Of a stretch of 64,000 bases of DNA, positions 27,901 to 43,800 are shown piece after piece. Every line of letters starts with the position of its first letter. Within the stretch, counting starts at the first letter, position 1. Source of the stretch: Lytechinus pictus (taxonomy: Eukaryota); assembly GCF_037042905.1 (NCBI RefSeq), contig NC_087251.1:4714001-4778000 (forward strand), given 5' to 3'. A model generated the notes under the pieces. That model did not search any database. It saw only the letters and a list, made by a program, of their open reading frames with translations, and had not been told where the DNA came from. The position numbers were made by a program, and so were the translations under genes.

Positions 27901-29522
27901 ACAAGAAAAAGTACTTCCCTTCGATTCCAAATATGGTTATTCATTAAACATATTAAAAAGTGTAGCCTAATTAACAGACACTGGTTTTCACTGGGGCCTT
28001 TTCGTAAGAATAAAAAGTAAATATACATATACATACAAACAATAAGATACATGAGTAAAGATTAAAACTATATACATATTACGCAACTATGTGTTACAAG
28101 ATACAATGTGAAGGTGAATGTTTAAACAAAATCTAAGAAAACTGCATGGGTGGAAACAGAAAAGGGTTGGTTAACTATAGTCTGACAAAGAGCAAACAAT
28201 GATAATATAGCTCAAATTGATAACATGAAAGACTGACTTAATCAACTGTGCACTATCAATTCATGAAATAAAGAAATAAAATTGTACAATAATACAAAAT
28301 TACCTGAACTAATGCAAAGGAAAAACTTTTTAGTTGAATGAAACCGGGATAAGTAACAATGTGAAGGAAAACGAGAATTATCAAAGTGCTTTCAGATCAT
28401 TTTTAATGCATCAAGATTAGGGGAACGTCGAAGTTCAACTGTGAAAATATTCCAATGTGCTATGCCCGCAATGTCAAATAACTGTATTCGGTTTTATATC
28501 TATCTGCATGTTACAATTTCCGTTAAGATTGGGCGTTGCCCGTACTGCTGCACCATCATAAAGAGTAATCTTTTTGCCAGAATTGAGGGAACTAGTTTGT
28601 GAATACATTTAAAGACCTTAGATAATCATGATTTTGTTTGCTTTTCCTGAAGAGAATACAATATTACCCTTCAAAGAAATGATTTTATACTATACGCGTA
28701 TTTATCTTCACTCATTGATTAACTTTTGTGTGAAAAGGGTGCAAAATTAAAATAAAACTGACTCGCAGGAGTCATATTCTGCAAAAATAAAAGTAAATAG
28801 TACTGATGTTAACTTAATATACTCTAATCATAAGCCTGCTCACTATGGCGAAAATAGTCAATATGGCGTGGTTTGCCAAATGAAAAGAAGACCATCCGCC
28901 ACTCGTCAGTTATGATCATCTCTCACATAAACAAAGGATATGAAGATATATTTTCCTGAAAAAAGATCTTCTTTTTGCAGTAGATCTAATAGATATTAAT
29001 TTTCAAAATTTATGAATGATTATTTCTTACCTTATCGAGCTCATGATGATTTGACAGAAGAATCACGTTTCCAAAAATATTTTATTCATCACGAGTGAAG
29101 GAAAATTACTTGATCAAAACAGTTTCCCAAAAATTTATGTAAACATGTTGAGTTTGCGTAAGGTAGTTTCAGATCTACGAAAGATGTGAAATCTAGTTAC
29201 TTGCTTGGTTTTTTTATGAATCCAGTTTTGAGGGGATTCATTGTCCAAAGAAAGAACATTATTCACGAAGAAAGCGCATGTGATAGGTCCTTGTTTTTAT
29301 TCAAACCTATCTCTCTATAACATCATGCCTTGCGACAAATTAATGTACTGACTATCTAAACAAGATGTTAAACTGCTTTTTATGAATTTATGTTTACTGT
29401 GATTACATCACTTTCCTATGAAATAACATTGCCATTAAAAGGGTCTGTTAACAATATTTTCTCCCTCTTCTCTCTCCCTCACTCCTTCTCACCCTCTCTC
29501 TCTCTCTCTTTCTCTTTCTATT

Positions 29523-29577
<55 letters not shown>

Positions 29578-29609
29578 GAAATAGTCTGCTATATATATAT
29601 ATATATGAA

Positions 29610-29693
<84 letters not shown>

Positions 29694-32600
29694 AATGTGT
29701 GAAGTTATACATGTACTACAGCTTTGACAACTCTTTTTATTTAAATATTGTAAAGAAATGGATGAAGAGAACAATGGTAGGCGTAGCTTAAATCAAGGTT
29801 CCCCAGAGCTATCTACCCTTTTTGGAAAAATTGGTGATGCCGAAAAAATGCCCCTGCCGGGAATCGAACCCGGGCCCCCAGCTTTGAACGCCGGTGCCTT
29901 AACCACTAGACCACAGAGACGGGTCAGTGGCTAGGGCGACCCCGATCCGATTGACCGTCAGATAGGGGCATTTTTTCGGCATCACCAATTTTTCCAAAAA
30001 GGGTAGATAGCTCTGGGGAACCTTGATTTAAGCTACGCCTACCATTGTTCTCTTCATCCATTTCTTTACAATATATATATATATATATATATATTACCGT
30101 CCCACACTCCCAGTCACTTTCACAGCATGCCCATCAACGTTGTAAGATTTCAAAATGGTCGTCATTATTTCATTATGTAATAGGATAAGATACATGCACA
30201 GCATCAATATTTCTACATCAGAATCTCAACATACGTTGCTATGTAGGTCATGCCTGTAGTAGTTTGCAATCCAGATAAGACGTTAACTTATTGAATTTGT
30301 ATATTATGTTTCTAATTAAATCTTCAGACAAACGCCCGTTGGCGATGGATGATTGGGCTCGTAGAGGTAGGTAGATTCCCCATCATCCATTTTCTTAATT
30401 TTCACAAATCCCTGTCATCCACGAGATATATTTTTCTCGACTATAAAATACAAGGTACAAAGGGGAAAAGCTCTATGTATATTCTGTTCATTGGATCTGC
30501 ACGGATATTAGCTGGGATTTCGAAGGCCGTCTATCAATCTATATAATTGGTGTCGTATTTATAGATGTTTCCAGTGCAGAAAACAATGATTTCTTGTACA
30601 CGCCTTTGATCATATTGAAGAGCTAGTACGTGTTGTCATGTTGGGTTAGGATTTTTTATATTTTTGATAATGTACTGTGTTCAATCGTTTTCTCCAAATT
30701 GTTCAAAAATGAATGTAGAAATATGATTTTATATATCTGAGTGTGATAGTCGTTCTCATGGTATTCTTTGGATGCTATCATAAACTTATCAGTTGAGAGA
30801 TATTCTTAATTTTTGTTATCAATTAAAGGCAAATTTGACTTCACTCAATTGTGTTTGTACATCTATATCTGATTTTACATGGCACTTTAATCAACAAGTG
30901 CGTCTACACTAAAAAACAAATCAGTAAAAAATGACTAGTTAATAGGGTCAGGTGGGTGCCACTGTTATTATAGTCATATTTGACAGTTTTCTAGTCGTAT
31001 TTTACTAGAACAGAGTTAATTCTAACTAGAATTTATGTCAGAAATGTGACTAGCACATCAGTTGCACCCAGCTGACTACTTGTCTAGTCAATTTGACAGA
31101 TTTGTTTTAAGAGTGTAGGAAGAAATATGTCAAGTCTGTAAAAAATTAAATATTATATAATTCAAACAATATAAAAACAAGAGAAATAGAGAGTGGGGGA
31201 AATCGTCAACCCTCTCATTTTCATGTCACTGGATTGTGCATTTAAAAATGTTGTGAAAAATAACATGAACTATAAAATGTCATAACTTTCTTATTTTATA
31301 TTCGAAATTTTCAACATTATGCTTGTTTGATTTTTCTCTTTCAATTCAAAATCATCTTTTTTCGGGGTAGACGTGACGGTCGCATATATAAATGTTGAAA
31401 GACAAACTTTAAAAGGGAAAATCTCTAAATGTTTTTTTATGAATTATCCAAAAAAATTCTGATTAGCAGTAGTAAATCATTTTGTTTTAAATGAAGCCAA
31501 TGATTTAGATTTAAGTATTTAAGATTCAAATTCAAAATATATAGTTTGGTTGGTCACGTACTATATAGCTATATTTCACCCCGTGGTTACTCTGTATTCG
31601 GTTTTTATTTACAGTCATAATAGGCTCATTGTCTCATCATAATATTAATATCCATGATTCCAGGGCCATGATTACAGCCATGAGAACTCCGACATACAAT
31701 AAACATTCAGTCATGTTTTATTTTTATACTTCTTATGAAGCATAGCTTATGATCCTAAAAGGGGGGCAATCAATATTCATGCATGCGAAACAAAATATGC
31801 ATAAATTCAGACAATACAACGTTATAACCGCATCATCGTAAACCGACAAAGTATATATATGTCTTGTATAACATGTAGGATATGAAAACTATACCATACA
31901 TGTCATAGACAGTGGCAAATAATTGATTACTATTACTACTGGTGATAATATCAATTCATTTCGTGTGAGGTGATGTGTAAACCCGAACTGTTTTCTTTAG
32001 GCTATATACGGCTGGTGGACACCTCACGACTCGTGAAATAATGATGGAGTTATGGTAGATCGACGGAGAAAGGTTAGAGTTACACACCTAGAGGCTCGTT
32101 CAAAACTGTTTTGACGCCGAAAAACAAGGCAATTTTACTTGTGAATACGCTTGCGATATGAGTTCCTGATCAATCCGCCATCTTGTAAATGCCCGTTGAG
32201 CACATTATGAACTACACGGTAAAGAGGGGGGGGGGGGGGGGTAATCAAGCACCTAAATACACAACAATGGTTTTAGCGAGTTTCAGGCACTTTGAGCCAT
32301 AGTATTCAGATACCTGATGACTGTCATTTGCGAGAGATTTTGTCAGTCATATTTTTAAGCAATGGGTTATTCATTAATCAATGAAGAAGGGGTGGTGGAT
32401 GGTAAAGGACAAAATGATATTTTCGTGTGTTTTATTCGAAACTTAACAGGAATGAGCTTCTTTATCACATTCTTAATAACTAGTTATTGCAAGTATCTCT
32501 TCTATAAATTATGTTGAGATCACTTTACATCAGACCTTTCGTCTAATTATTCAGCTTCATTCATCATGCATGAACTTACCCCATATCCATCCCTATCATC

Positions 32601-40800: not shown

Positions 40801-43800
40801 AGGTTTTTAACCACAAATGAAGGATAAAAAATTGACAAGCAAAAAAAAAAAAGGTTTTCAACCACAAATGAAGGGTATTTTGTACCCAAAAAAATTTAAC
40901 AAGCCCCCCCCCAAAAAAAAAAGGTCTTCAATTTCAAAGGGGGGGGGGACACATTTCGGTTTCAATGGCATTTTTACATTACAAATTTTACAAATTTTTA
41001 TTTTTCTTCTCAAGGGGGGGGGGGCACGTGCCCCCTGTGCCCCCCCCCCCCCACCCTGGATCCGCGCCTGGTCATGTATTTGATAAAGGGAATTAAGGTT
41101 TCCTCATTAACGCCCTTTTCCCTTTAAAACGGTGATATAAATATAACAGAAGAAAACATATGATTCTGATTTCAATCCCTAAGTTTCAAGCAGAAAATAT
41201 TTTGATATTTGAGCAAATAGAGAGAAGTTCTTATATGGTATCACTAATACATACATATATATATGAGAAATTATACCATTGTTCTCTTCATTTACTTCTT
41301 TCACTATATGCATATATATATATATGAGGCCAGAATATTACATACACCCAGGAAATTCAAAGAAAAGTTGACACTTGCCAAACATCATAAAATTCACGGT
41401 ATCTTAAAAATATTTGTGCTATCATGACGAATTTGATATCAAACCAATGAATATGTCATGCCCCTTCATCTCATTGCTTTATCATCACGAGCTGAAAAAA
41501 AAATTAGGTGTAATTTCCCCCCTAAATCTTCATATTTGAGGCAAATCAAAAATAGAAACTTGACAAAAACATTTCATATTTGTGCTAGTTACTTCTCAAC
41601 ACAAACATTTCAGATTACACTTTTTTGTTCAGTGGTGACATATCATGATGTAATATGAATCATAGATTTGACATTTATACATTTCTACGAAACAATTATT
41701 GAAAATATAATAACAAACAATAAAATGCATTTGGCACGAATATTACTTTTTTTCAAAGAAAATTCCACCTGAAATATATACTTTAATCTTAACGGCATCC
41801 CAATCACGTGACGCTCTTTCATTTGATACCAAATTCGTCATGGTAGTATTTATGTTTCTGAAGATATAGTAAATGTTACGATGTTTGGCAAGCGAACAAA
41901 TTTCACTGAATTTCATGGGTGTATGTAAACTTCTTGCCTCAACTGTATGCATCTACTCATTATCATGACTTTGTTGTCTTGTAGGAGATACATCGACAAA
42001 TGGAAAGACAAGACGATTCTGATGTTGTAAACTATAGATTTGATAGAGCCCATGCAGAAGGCTTAAAGCTAAAGCTAAAAAATCAAAATATTTGGTAGTA
42101 TACAAGCAACATCCACATCATTTTGTCTTTTCTTTCGCCAGCAGGTATAATGGTTACAACCTTCTATAAGTTTATAAATTTATTCCAATTGCTTTGCACT
42201 GATTTTGTTGAAAATATTTCTTACCCCTTCCTCTGATTTCTTTTACACAATTTTTCGCTTAGGTTATATTCCCTTTATAAGTTTCAAATACTACCGAAAC
42301 TTATCATTATTGAGTACCACATTGTGTAGGTCTTCATGCTTCATGATTCATACACAGTGAACTGATTTATGGTTGTAATCGCCATTACTTTTTATACGGT
42401 CTAATTTTTATGATGATACTCATTTTAATAATTGCTATCGTTTATTTGTTTTTCTCTTTCACAAATTCTTGTTATGTCTAGGTTAAAGATCCTGCGAAAC
42501 TAAGCGCAAATTATCGGCAGCATGTCAGATTTAGATTTGACGTAGTTGCTATGGTGCCCTGGGGTGTGGCTTACGAAATATGTAGAGGTATGTGATTTAA
42601 AAAAAATTGCATGTTTGGCCTCAACAAATAATGGCTCATTGCGCAACGTTCGATTACCTACATAATACCTTATATTTTACAATTTATTGTCTCGCACCTA
42701 TTTATGAAATTTAGACTGGGAACCATGCGCATGTTTGGTGGCCATCGATGCTTTCGCCTAAAAGCCTCCTCACACACGAACGATTACCGCAGACTAAGTA
42801 AGAGATGCGAATTCAAACAGATGACCAACGATTTTTCAATTCGTCGAGAAAATCTTAAACATGTTCAAAATTTCCGCGCGAATTTGAATAATCGCAGCTG
42901 TTAGTTCAAAAGGTGTACGAACCCAAACACGAAGGGTAAATATGATTTACTACCATTGAAAACGATTTAAAACAAAAACATATTTCAGGCAATTCGGTTA
43001 GGTGTGAGGGGCCTTAAAGACCAATTATATAAAGCCCCCTCACACCTGACCGACTGTAGGCGGAGGATGGGTGACGAATGGGAAAAATGTACGCGAATTC
43101 AACGATTTCAAATAAAATCTCCGTCAAATCATGCGATCAGTAACTATTGTCAAATTGTATCAACGAACGGTAAGCGAAGGATAAATATGACATGCGAAGG
43201 ATATCGATTTTTTGGTTCACCTCTTTGAGTAAATTGCAGCCGAAGGCGAGTGAAGGGTTGATATACCCAAATAAGACGAACGAACAGTGAGCATTGATTT
43301 GATACGGCGTGCGATTAGAAACGAAGACGAGGGAATAGATCGGGGGTTCTTGTACGTTTGTGTCATCGTGTTGCTTCGTTAAAGGTCAAGTCCACCCCAA
43401 AAAAGTTGATTTTAATAAATAGAGAAAAATCACACAAGAATAACATTGAAAACTTCATCAAAATCGGATGGAAAATAAGAAAGTTATGACATTTCAAAGT
43501 TTCGCTTATTTTTCACAAAACAGTTCTATGCTCAACTCAGTGATATGTAAATGAGAGAGTCGATGATGTCACTCACTCACTATATCTTTTGTTTTTTATT
43601 GTTTCAATTATACAATATTTAATATTTTATGTAAGATTCCCTTTGAGAATTACCCACAATAATATAGATGGCATCTCATCATTTGCTTTTCAATAAGTAC
43701 AATTATCGTCACAATTGCTATACATAATGTTAAGAATAGGTTGCAGTATAGATTAATTTAATTCTTATTGAATGTAAGGGAAGTTGCAGATGACACCAAA

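Follow-up and report, generated by a model that had tools for sequence, protein, structure and literature searches.

Insertions of Penelope-like elements (PLEs) are described by Craig et al. (PMC8557442, in the part of that text available) as strongly 5'-truncated, partly tandem and accompanied by an adjacent inverted, 5'-truncated copy. The same part of that source reports a bias of PLEs towards microsatellites, with (TA)n as the preferred target of the Naiads, and multicopy head-to-tail insertions of non-autonomous families. Animal tandem retrozymes, which consist of non-coding units of a few hundred bp, have been proposed as non-autonomous PLE derivatives (bioRxiv 10.64898/2026.07.22.740005, in its accessible portion). 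A tRNA-bearing repeat with insertions of similar anatomy is described here from a 64-kb window (64,000 nucleotides of Lytechinus pictus contig NC_087251.1, positions 4,714,001 to 4,778,000, forward strand), in which it occupies positions 29688-30081. From the letters alone this element had been taken for a DNA transposon with terminal inverted repeats (TIRs) that spreads an intact-looking UGA-reading tRNA gene. An intact opal suppressor spread by a transposon, as first proposed, would have been remarkable; what the evidence favours is more ordinary, yet instructive all the same. The window element is a tRNA-bearing tandem repeat that was recently inserted head to head, with an insertion signature of the PLE type.

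The family was surveyed in the same genome (811.7 Mb, 368 contigs) with the 344-bp element as query, and all counts from genome searches are lower bounds. The query gave 170 scored matches from 740 candidates, many of them about 410 bp apart. Exact matches to the tRNA anticodon stem plus variable region, with the 7 loop positions left free, numbered at least 1,796 (reversed-pattern control, 0), and a 31-nt arm motif was matched at least 3,064 times at up to 3 mismatches (control, 0). Tandem Repeats Finder returned one period of 406 bp, with 7.9 copies at 99% match, and one of 412 bp, with 5.3 copies at 99%. Most family copies sit in such tandem units of 406-412 bp, each composed of a 72-nt tRNA-like gene, a run of six T (T6) and a spacer of about 330 nt, and one run noted in the tRNA-pattern search comprised at least 38 units. 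Neither an open reading frame (ORF) nor a Pfam match nor a ribozyme was found in the unit; at the Rfam gathering score only tRNA was reported, and at E up to 5 over more than 2 units tRNA was accompanied by weak sub-threshold matches, with no hammerhead or other ribozyme family among them. No publication on a tRNA-bearing tandem repeat with a TCA anticodon was found in word searches of the open-access literature, which did not include a comparison with Repbase or Dfam.

In the window, two truncated pieces of this unit lie head to head. One contains the tRNA with 45 nt upstream of it, the other the last 7 tRNA nucleotides and the downstream part. The features are as follows, with unit numbering starting at tRNA position 1.

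29525..29687, no strand: TA-rich microsatellite of the left flank, with pure (TA)n of at least 8 units at 29525-29572, 29590-29605 and 29616-29677
29688..29848, minus strand: part downstream of the tRNA, unit positions 73-231, which ends at the '231' end site beside (TA)n and includes the left arm (29738-29855)
29843..29848, minus strand: T6 run (A6 on the plus strand) right after the discriminator base, in the form of an RNA polymerase III (Pol III) terminator; array units have the same T6
29849..29920, minus strand: tRNA-like gene of 72 nt, anticodon TCA, loop GUUCAAA (G32); called by ARAGORN, 55 bits in Infernal
29921..29965, minus strand: unit positions 362-406, 45 nt that stand before the tRNA in all array units (blastn, 97.8% identity)
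29964..29968, no strand: inner junction of the two inverted copies; the spanning 33-mer occurs once genome-wide
29964..30081, plus strand: inverted, 5'-truncated second copy, about unit 66-181, forming the right arm; ends at the '174/181' site, followed by (TA)n
30072..30093, no strand: (TA)n of the right flank, read from the sequence

By blastn, unit positions 1-231 correspond to 29920-29688 on the minus strand (96.1% identity) and 71-181 to 29969-30081 on the plus strand. The inverted arms, 29738-29855 and 29964-30081, are 118 nt long and 98% complementary (2 mismatches), with 108 nt between them; complementarity is perfect over 108 nt (29748-29855 against 29964-30071), and 3 nt further outward bring the match to 111. 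The left arm contains the last 7 tRNA positions plus T6. Family sequence runs beyond the span first described, to 29688-30081, and is flanked by (TA)n on both sides; the left copy extends 50 nt past the left arm to the '231' site, without a counterpart on the right. With up to 3 mismatches allowed, the 33-mer across the inner junction matched the genome once (reversed-pattern control, 0). The perfect 108-bp arms and 108-bp spacer of the sequence-only reading were borne out by sequence comparison, and so was the view of a young, multicopy, mobile-type repeat. Its TIR transposon was not: the supposed TIRs are two inverted, differently truncated copies of the unit part downstream of the tRNA, their overlap produces the appearance of 108-nt TIRs, and the junction between them is unique. 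A counter-case named in that reading, a SINE-type head (SINE, short interspersed element) in an inverted duplication, comes close to what was found.

In the surroundings, 5 window ORFs of at least 130 amino acids were obtained, none with a Pfam match, so that there are no coding clues near the element. A CT-rich microsatellite at 29470-29520 directly precedes the left (TA)n tract, and a weak 36-nt match to the repeat arm lies at 41274-41309 (86% identity, E 9e-5).

Ends and junctions were tabulated for 66 loci, taken from the 344-bp search (30 loci) and from arm-motif matches on contigs C1 and C2 (40 loci) after 4 overlapping ones were dropped from the former; 72 blocks lying fully inside a locus were counted. 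Some copies are single pieces, others form head-to-tail unit runs, and others again are truncated and paired head to head. They regularly continue upstream of the tRNA into unit 232-406, and some span several units. Outer ends of the 3' (downstream) type were confined to unit 170-181 or 221-231 in 91 of 103 cases, with the largest counts at 181 (33), 231 (33), 170 (9) and 223 (9); these fixed ends coincide with the TA- or CA-rich unit motifs ACAATAT, TTAAATA, ACACA and GTATA. The 41 outer ends of the 5' (upstream) type were scattered over unit 1-376. (TA)4 or longer lay within 30 nt of 88 of the 103 3'-type and 29 of the 41 5'-type ends. Junctions inside the blocks were direct in 95 cases, head-to-head in 34 and tail-to-tail in 3. 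The breakpoint pairs of head-to-head junctions all differed among the approximately 30 loci read off the maps (362|66-71 in the window; 331|100, 313|99, 373|79, 335|108, 334|118 and 285|297 elsewhere). At 11 of 23 loci the two arms showed no difference within the part compared, against 15.6% of between-locus pairs (n = 7,889), an excess that fits one event or one template per pair. No target-site duplication was readable in 35 simple insertions, because the insertions lie inside (TA)n; (TA)n targets, and hence unreadable target duplications, are likewise given for Naiads in the available text of PMC8557442.

These tallies bear directly on a MITE-like DNA transposon (MITE, miniature inverted-repeat transposable element) with 108-nt TIRs, carrying the Pol III tRNA unit and mobilised by a transposase. 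Likeness to such elements is limited to the window copy, with its long, perfect inverted arms and its TA-repeat flanks, of the kind that Tc1/mariner-type TA target duplications would give; the multicopy state of the family would also suit it. Family members have neither TIR nor inner sequence nor junction in common. The majority lie in arrays of one orientation or are lone truncated pieces, without any inverted repeat (95 direct against 34 head-to-head junctions), breakpoint pairs and arm lengths vary among the head-to-head loci read, and in the window itself the junction 33-mer is genome-unique and the left copy is 50 nt longer than the 'TIR' and has no partner on the right side. No transposase partner turned up in about 80 loci, among which no dedicated search for one was made. 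A transposase-moved element of this type is hardly credible on these data.

Other sequences were noted beside TA runs. A shared sequence starting TTGTAGCCGAACCGACTTT follows a TA run in the 3' flanks of three loci (L015, L016 and L039), and an end pair CAGTGCGTCCCA.../...GGCCCACTGTG, resembling Tc1/mariner-type inverted ends, adjoins TA runs at L044, L049 and L035. In this genome, several mobile families seem commonly to land in, or start from, TA microsatellites. At L017, a perfect palindrome with a (TA)n centre, GAGTAGTG(TA)nCACTACTC, precedes the start of the array, and an unrelated 166-bp tandem repeat (positions 201-613 of the locus, 2.5 copies, 89% match) lies about 230 bp from the tRNA-repeat array.

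Independent data were obtained from two raw RNA-seq runs (long-RNA libraries, unsuited to tRNAs) and from two contig runs that were only guessed to be RNA, all compared with one rotated unit. The RNA-seq runs contributed 1,921 and 1,335 reads on the unit. They covered it entirely, in both directions about equally and with no tRNA-sized product, and depth peaked over the arm part, of which the genome also has the most copies. Some reads span joints between units, and several joints between opposite strands are crossed as well. The arrays and inverted junctions are thus present in independent data, and RNA libraries at least contain the repeat. That the palindrome at this locus is an assembly artefact, e.g. 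a fold-back chimeric long read in a repeat-rich microsatellite, is considered most improbable. Such an artefact would agree with a genome-unique junction, and PLE-type tandem and inverted insertions are said to cause assembly problems (PMC8557442, available part); but head-to-head junctions are common (34 in 72 blocks), each is framed by (TA)n and canonical end sites, and reads and contigs of independent runs contain several opposite-strand joints within the unit, which do not include the window's own junction.

Taken over the loci examined, the insertion signature of the family is of the PLE type: 5' truncation, multi-unit tandems, an adjacent inverted truncated copy, a bias towards (TA)n and unreadable target duplications. 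Non-autonomous PLE families (Naiad, Chlamys) resemble it in high 5' truncation, partial tandems, head-to-tail multicopy insertions, adjacent inverted truncated copies and microsatellite bias, as far as these are set out in the available text of PMC8557442. PLEs are present in the genome. A search for GIY-YIG domains gave 16 matches from 468 candidates, and one PLE copy had an open frame of 954 amino acids with RVT_1 at 434-623 and, at its C terminus, GIY-YIG at 855-944. The following copies were noted.

L081, G000:C19:10758600-10766000: PLE copy
L082 and L083: further PLE copies
C19:10767337: second copy on C19; the two C19 copies are head-to-head, about 4.4 kb apart

In all three fetched copies (TA)n follows the ORF at about 1.3 kb, with two alternative end points. 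One PLE locus has a tRNA-repeat copy some 250 bp past the (TA)n of the PLE, and this copy itself ends in a second (TA)n. A hammerhead was absent at gathering score from the three fetched PLE pieces, outside which the 5' pseudo-long terminal repeat (pLTR) may lie.

On balance, the account that is leaned towards is that of a very abundant, non-coding, tRNA-bearing repeat that is inserted into (TA)n by target-primed reverse transcription, as a PLE-dependent passenger. A (TA)n microsatellite would break or be cut, and both TA-repeat ends, being self-complementary, would prime copying at the TA-rich sites of the unit. Copying onto a sense-strand template of the repeat would then correspond to target-primed reverse transcription as in PLEs, and joining of the two nascent copies in the middle would leave a head-to-head pair. 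Priming from both TA ends would explain the 34-to-3 orientation bias as well as the identical arms. The tRNA module would be constrained in source copies, perhaps as a Pol III promoter or as a processing signal, and individual copies would not be kept as decoders.

In L1 twin priming, two priming events at one break generate an inverted, 5'-truncated structure, to which the family bears a likeness. The family differs in that both arms face outward and share their 3' end sites on the template, as expected if both TA ends prime at the same TA-rich sites.

The main rival is a route by DNA repair only, which fits the anatomy nearly as well and is regarded as a possible, though not a likely, explanation. 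A broken (TA)n would be repaired by copying arrays or extrachromosomal 406-bp circles, with priming by TA microhomology, and fold-back or template switching would give the head-to-head arrangement. Priming of this kind predicts fixed ends at TA- or CA-rich unit motifs, as found, and rolling copying of a circle fits the multi-unit copies; moreover, the family has no retroelement 3' end in common with the sampled PLE, and the RNA evidence is uninformative. Repair should, however, copy many templates and not one family at thousands of sites, the genome contains PLEs that end in (TA)n, and the combination of features is that described for PLE retrotransposition in the available part of PMC8557442.

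Several results also count against target-primed copying of a PLE-dependent passenger. The 3' end of the PLE and the 3' part of the repeat are not similar: their alignment scores 30, dinucleotide shuffles average 26.2 and reach that score in 204 of 1,000 cases, and other parts of the PLE 3' untranslated region scored higher. This comparison sampled one PLE family, with a C-terminal endonuclease; Naiad-type PLEs with an N-terminal endonuclease were not looked for. In the RNA-seq data, read starts and ends did not pile up anywhere, nor on the tRNA, and cover roughly tracked genomic copy number; the repeat reads could be read-through transcripts or DNA carry-over. Since T6 directly follows the tRNA, a tRNA-initiated Pol III transcript cannot carry the downstream part, and another promoter or read-through is needed. 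Finally, the loci are top BLAST matches plus matches from two contigs only, about 70 of well over 1,000.

Compared with the systems named at the outset, the family thus has tandem non-coding units of a few hundred bp like the animal non-LTR retrozymes (LTR, long terminal repeat; bioRxiv 10.64898/2026.07.22.740005, accessible portion), but the hammerhead that defines retrozymes is missing from its unit, which instead contains a complete tRNA-like gene with its own T6 in place of a known module. It differs from PLEs in a 3' end unlike that of the one sampled PLE with its C-terminal endonuclease, and the published (TA)n bias is that of the Naiads, which have an N-terminal endonuclease (PMC8557442, available part). 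With tRNA-derived SINEs it shares a tRNA-related head with A and B boxes, a 3' microsatellite and 5' truncation, and tandem-like and palindromic structures are likewise described for bivalve tRNA-derived SINEs in the accessible text of PMC11481361. In contrast to SINEs, T6 stands right after the head, copies run upstream into the previous unit, and the repeated entity is a 406-bp unit and not a head, body and tail; no tail derived from a long interspersed element (LINE) was identified, in an analysis that did not include a LINE search. A second, unrelated tRNA-headed repeat accounts for most of 1,065 genome-wide matches to a shared D-arm pattern. It has a Glu-type TTC loop (TGGTCTAGTGGTTA[C/T]GACTCTCGTCTTTCA; example sites C1:3352707, C1:8645252 and C2:2068873) and is probably a tRNA-Glu-derived SINE.

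The tRNA module itself was evaluated with ARAGORN, which called a single tRNA in the whole window, at 29849-29920 on the minus strand with anticodon tca, and with Infernal/Rfam, which assigned it to RF00005 (tRNA) with 55 bits (gathering score 29, E 6.6e-11). The fold has an acceptor stem of 7 bp, a D stem of 4 bp, an anticodon stem of 5 bp, a variable loop of 4 nt and a T stem of 5 bp, and both an A-box stretch (TGGTCTAGTGG) and a B-box stretch (GGTTCGATTCC) were read directly. The 3' acceptor strand of the window copy is CAGGGGC, against CAGAGAC in the family, and the two A-to-G changes result in two G-U pairs. In the commonest family tRNA all acceptor pairs are Watson-Crick and the score is 60.9 bits; both scores fall inside the range of the scored tRNA matches of the genome (51-75 bits). 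Minimum free energy folding yielded the acceptor, anticodon and T stems without the D stem, with Z values of -0.9 (window) and -2.0 (array copy) that are weak alone.

Identity as selenocysteine tRNA (tRNA-Sec) was considered and ruled out. tRNA-Sec has an extended acceptor/T stack, a long variable arm and a 6-bp D stem; the 7-bp acceptor stem, 5-bp T stem and 4-nt variable loop of the module, together with RF00005 as the best clan member, do not agree with it. Much of the sequence-only reading holds for the module: a canonical 72-nt cloverleaf with anticodon TCA read from 29920 to 29849, intact A and B boxes, a 3' acceptor strand and T6 that lie inside the arm, a structure other than tRNA-Sec and an Infernal score that is not pseudogene-like. 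As for the anticodon, which that reading proposed to compare among copies, TCA is present in nearly all of them, but older copies have TCC and the constancy reflects common descent, as set out below.

At the first 30 loci, tca was read in 67 of 67 ARAGORN calls (62 distinct copies). The 40 arm-motif loci gave tca in 42 of 46 calls, tcg in 2 and tcc in 1, with 1 unassigned. Among the first 100 tRNA-pattern matches listed, the loop GTTCAAA was present in 92 and TCA was kept in 98. A first, more biased sample showed 5 differences in 1,625 site-copies of the tRNA versus 4-5% upstream. In a less biased sample of 41 complete tRNA segments, 11 had the commonest sequence, 9 had one of the two 3'-acceptor A-to-G changes and 21 had private changes, which include the B box, the stems and the anticodon. 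Singleton variants amounted to 0.87% of site-copies in the tRNA versus 0.39-1.5% across flank segments, and non-consensus letters to 1.15% in tRNA positions 1-65 versus about 1.3-6.4% in the flanks, with the locus-picking motif left out. Each of the three common acceptor variants changes A to G opposite U, so that pairing is kept; this is suggestive, but the number is only three. Uniformity of the tRNA between subfamilies, together with private mutations at the level of the flanks, indicates that source copies keep the tRNA and that daughter copies decay neutrally. The constancy of TCA is accordingly best read, from the mutation pattern, as reflecting recent common descent and not selection on the copies.

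Older copies were collected by searching for the family T arm together with a variable loop of 4 nt and any third anticodon letter but A. It gave 167 matches, of which the first 100 rows were read by eye; these held family-type TCC (20), TCG (6) and TCT (2), and the remaining rows of the 100 belonged to clusters of canonical tRNA-Gly(GCC), tRNA-Gly(TCC) and tRNA-Glu. Six TCC copies share the unit context. Over unit 73-170 their identity to the consensus averages 95.4% (93.9-98.0%), against 99.1% for 109 TCA copies, and they have diagnostic changes in common at position 104 (5 of 6) and at 183 and 215 (4 of 6 each). The TCC copies therefore represent an older subfamily with a Gly-type anticodon, and the young, abundant TCA subfamily most likely, and most simply, derives from a C36-to-A change in a source copy. 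The loop of the older subfamily is GTTCCAA; that of the canonical Gly-TCC genes of this genome is CTTCCAA, with an identical T arm. The T arm of the repeat head, and partly its D arm or loop, is shared with canonical Gly-TCC, Gly-GCC, Glu-CTC and Glu-TTC genes, but no canonical gene resembles it closely as a whole. These canonical tRNA-Gly and tRNA-Glu genes have a metazoan look. Ancestry from Gly-TCC has in its favour only the anticodon TCC and the loop TTCCAA found in the older copies. Two older TCC copies, L075 459-540 and L080 443-529, have a small extra insertion in the anticodon arm, owing to which ARAGORN reads odd tRNAs of 82-87 nt.

Against this background, a working tRNA family under selection, UGA-reading as an opal suppressor or otherwise, with the arrays as its gene clusters, would have to be reconciled with the mutation pattern. 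The cloverleaf is intact at 55-61 bits, within the 51-75 bits of the genome, the A and B boxes and T6 are in place, the tRNA is more uniform than the flanks between subfamilies and the common acceptor variants keep pairing. A36-A37-A38 is present as in tRNAs that read UNN codons, a likeness shared, with the anticodon UCA, with tRNA-Sec and natural opal suppressors; G32 is atypical for tRNAs. From these the family is set apart by its 7/5 acceptor/T fold, its 4-nt variable loop, G32, a TCC ancestor and some 1,800 copies in neutral decay. In the tRNA, private mutations reach the same frequency as in the flanks and strike the B box, the anticodon and the stems, truncation is random and can fall inside the tRNA, the older copies have TCC, and the canonical tRNA clusters differ in look and sit elsewhere. 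Reads did not pile up on the tRNA, in libraries unsuited to tRNAs. Use of TGA as a sense codon in this genome left no sign in actin-domain matches: 80 of 90 were without an in-frame stop, and among the 10 with stops 2 mixed kinds and 8 had a single kind (TGA 4, TAG 3, TAA 1), with no one codon recurring, as expected for alignments that cross introns. Selection for a working UGA-reading tRNA thus has very little probability, and the opal suppressor proposed at first is very unlikely to be a maintained one, judged by the neutral private mutations, the TCC ancestor and the actin matches.

Canonical tRNA genes were seen in dense clusters of their own. One is G000:C4:9700711-9735957 (43 of 49 scored matches, 51-69 bits), with irregular spacing unlike that of the 406-bp arrays; C3:30240611-30341529 consists of tRNA-Gly(GCC) and C13:22080297-22129345 of tRNA-Gly(TCC), again irregularly spaced.

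In the contig runs, the family was present under at least two other organism labels. In one other organism 825 contigs matched, 430 of them at least 99% alike. Another organism had 5 matching contigs only, at about 90-95% identity, and in one of them another tRNA-like sequence is joined to the 5' part of the tRNA, a hint that relatives have tRNA-headed repeats that are related but distinct.

A bolder form of the PLE-dependent passenger is put forward only tentatively and is rather unlikely as it stands. In it, the family would represent a novel type of non-autonomous Penelope-type retroelement, with a complete tRNA gene in the place that the hammerhead has in retrozymes. RNase P and RNase Z would cut multi-unit transcripts at every tRNA, or the tRNA would provide a Pol III promoter, and a PLE enzyme would copy the pieces into (TA)n with priming from both TA ends. 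If this is true, about 1,800 Pol III-ready tRNA genes with a UCA anticodon would have arisen as a by-product, with low-level UGA read-through if any of them are charged. If the tRNA serves as the processing or promoter module of a PLE-dependent passenger, the retrozyme concept would widen beyond ribozymes. A single point mutation in a source copy of a tRNA-headed repeat can lead scanners to report hundreds or thousands of 'SeC' or suppressor tRNAs for an animal genome. With fixed outer ends, random inner ends and a 34-to-3 orientation bias, the family is a natural data set for the little-understood tandem and inverted insertion into microsatellites.

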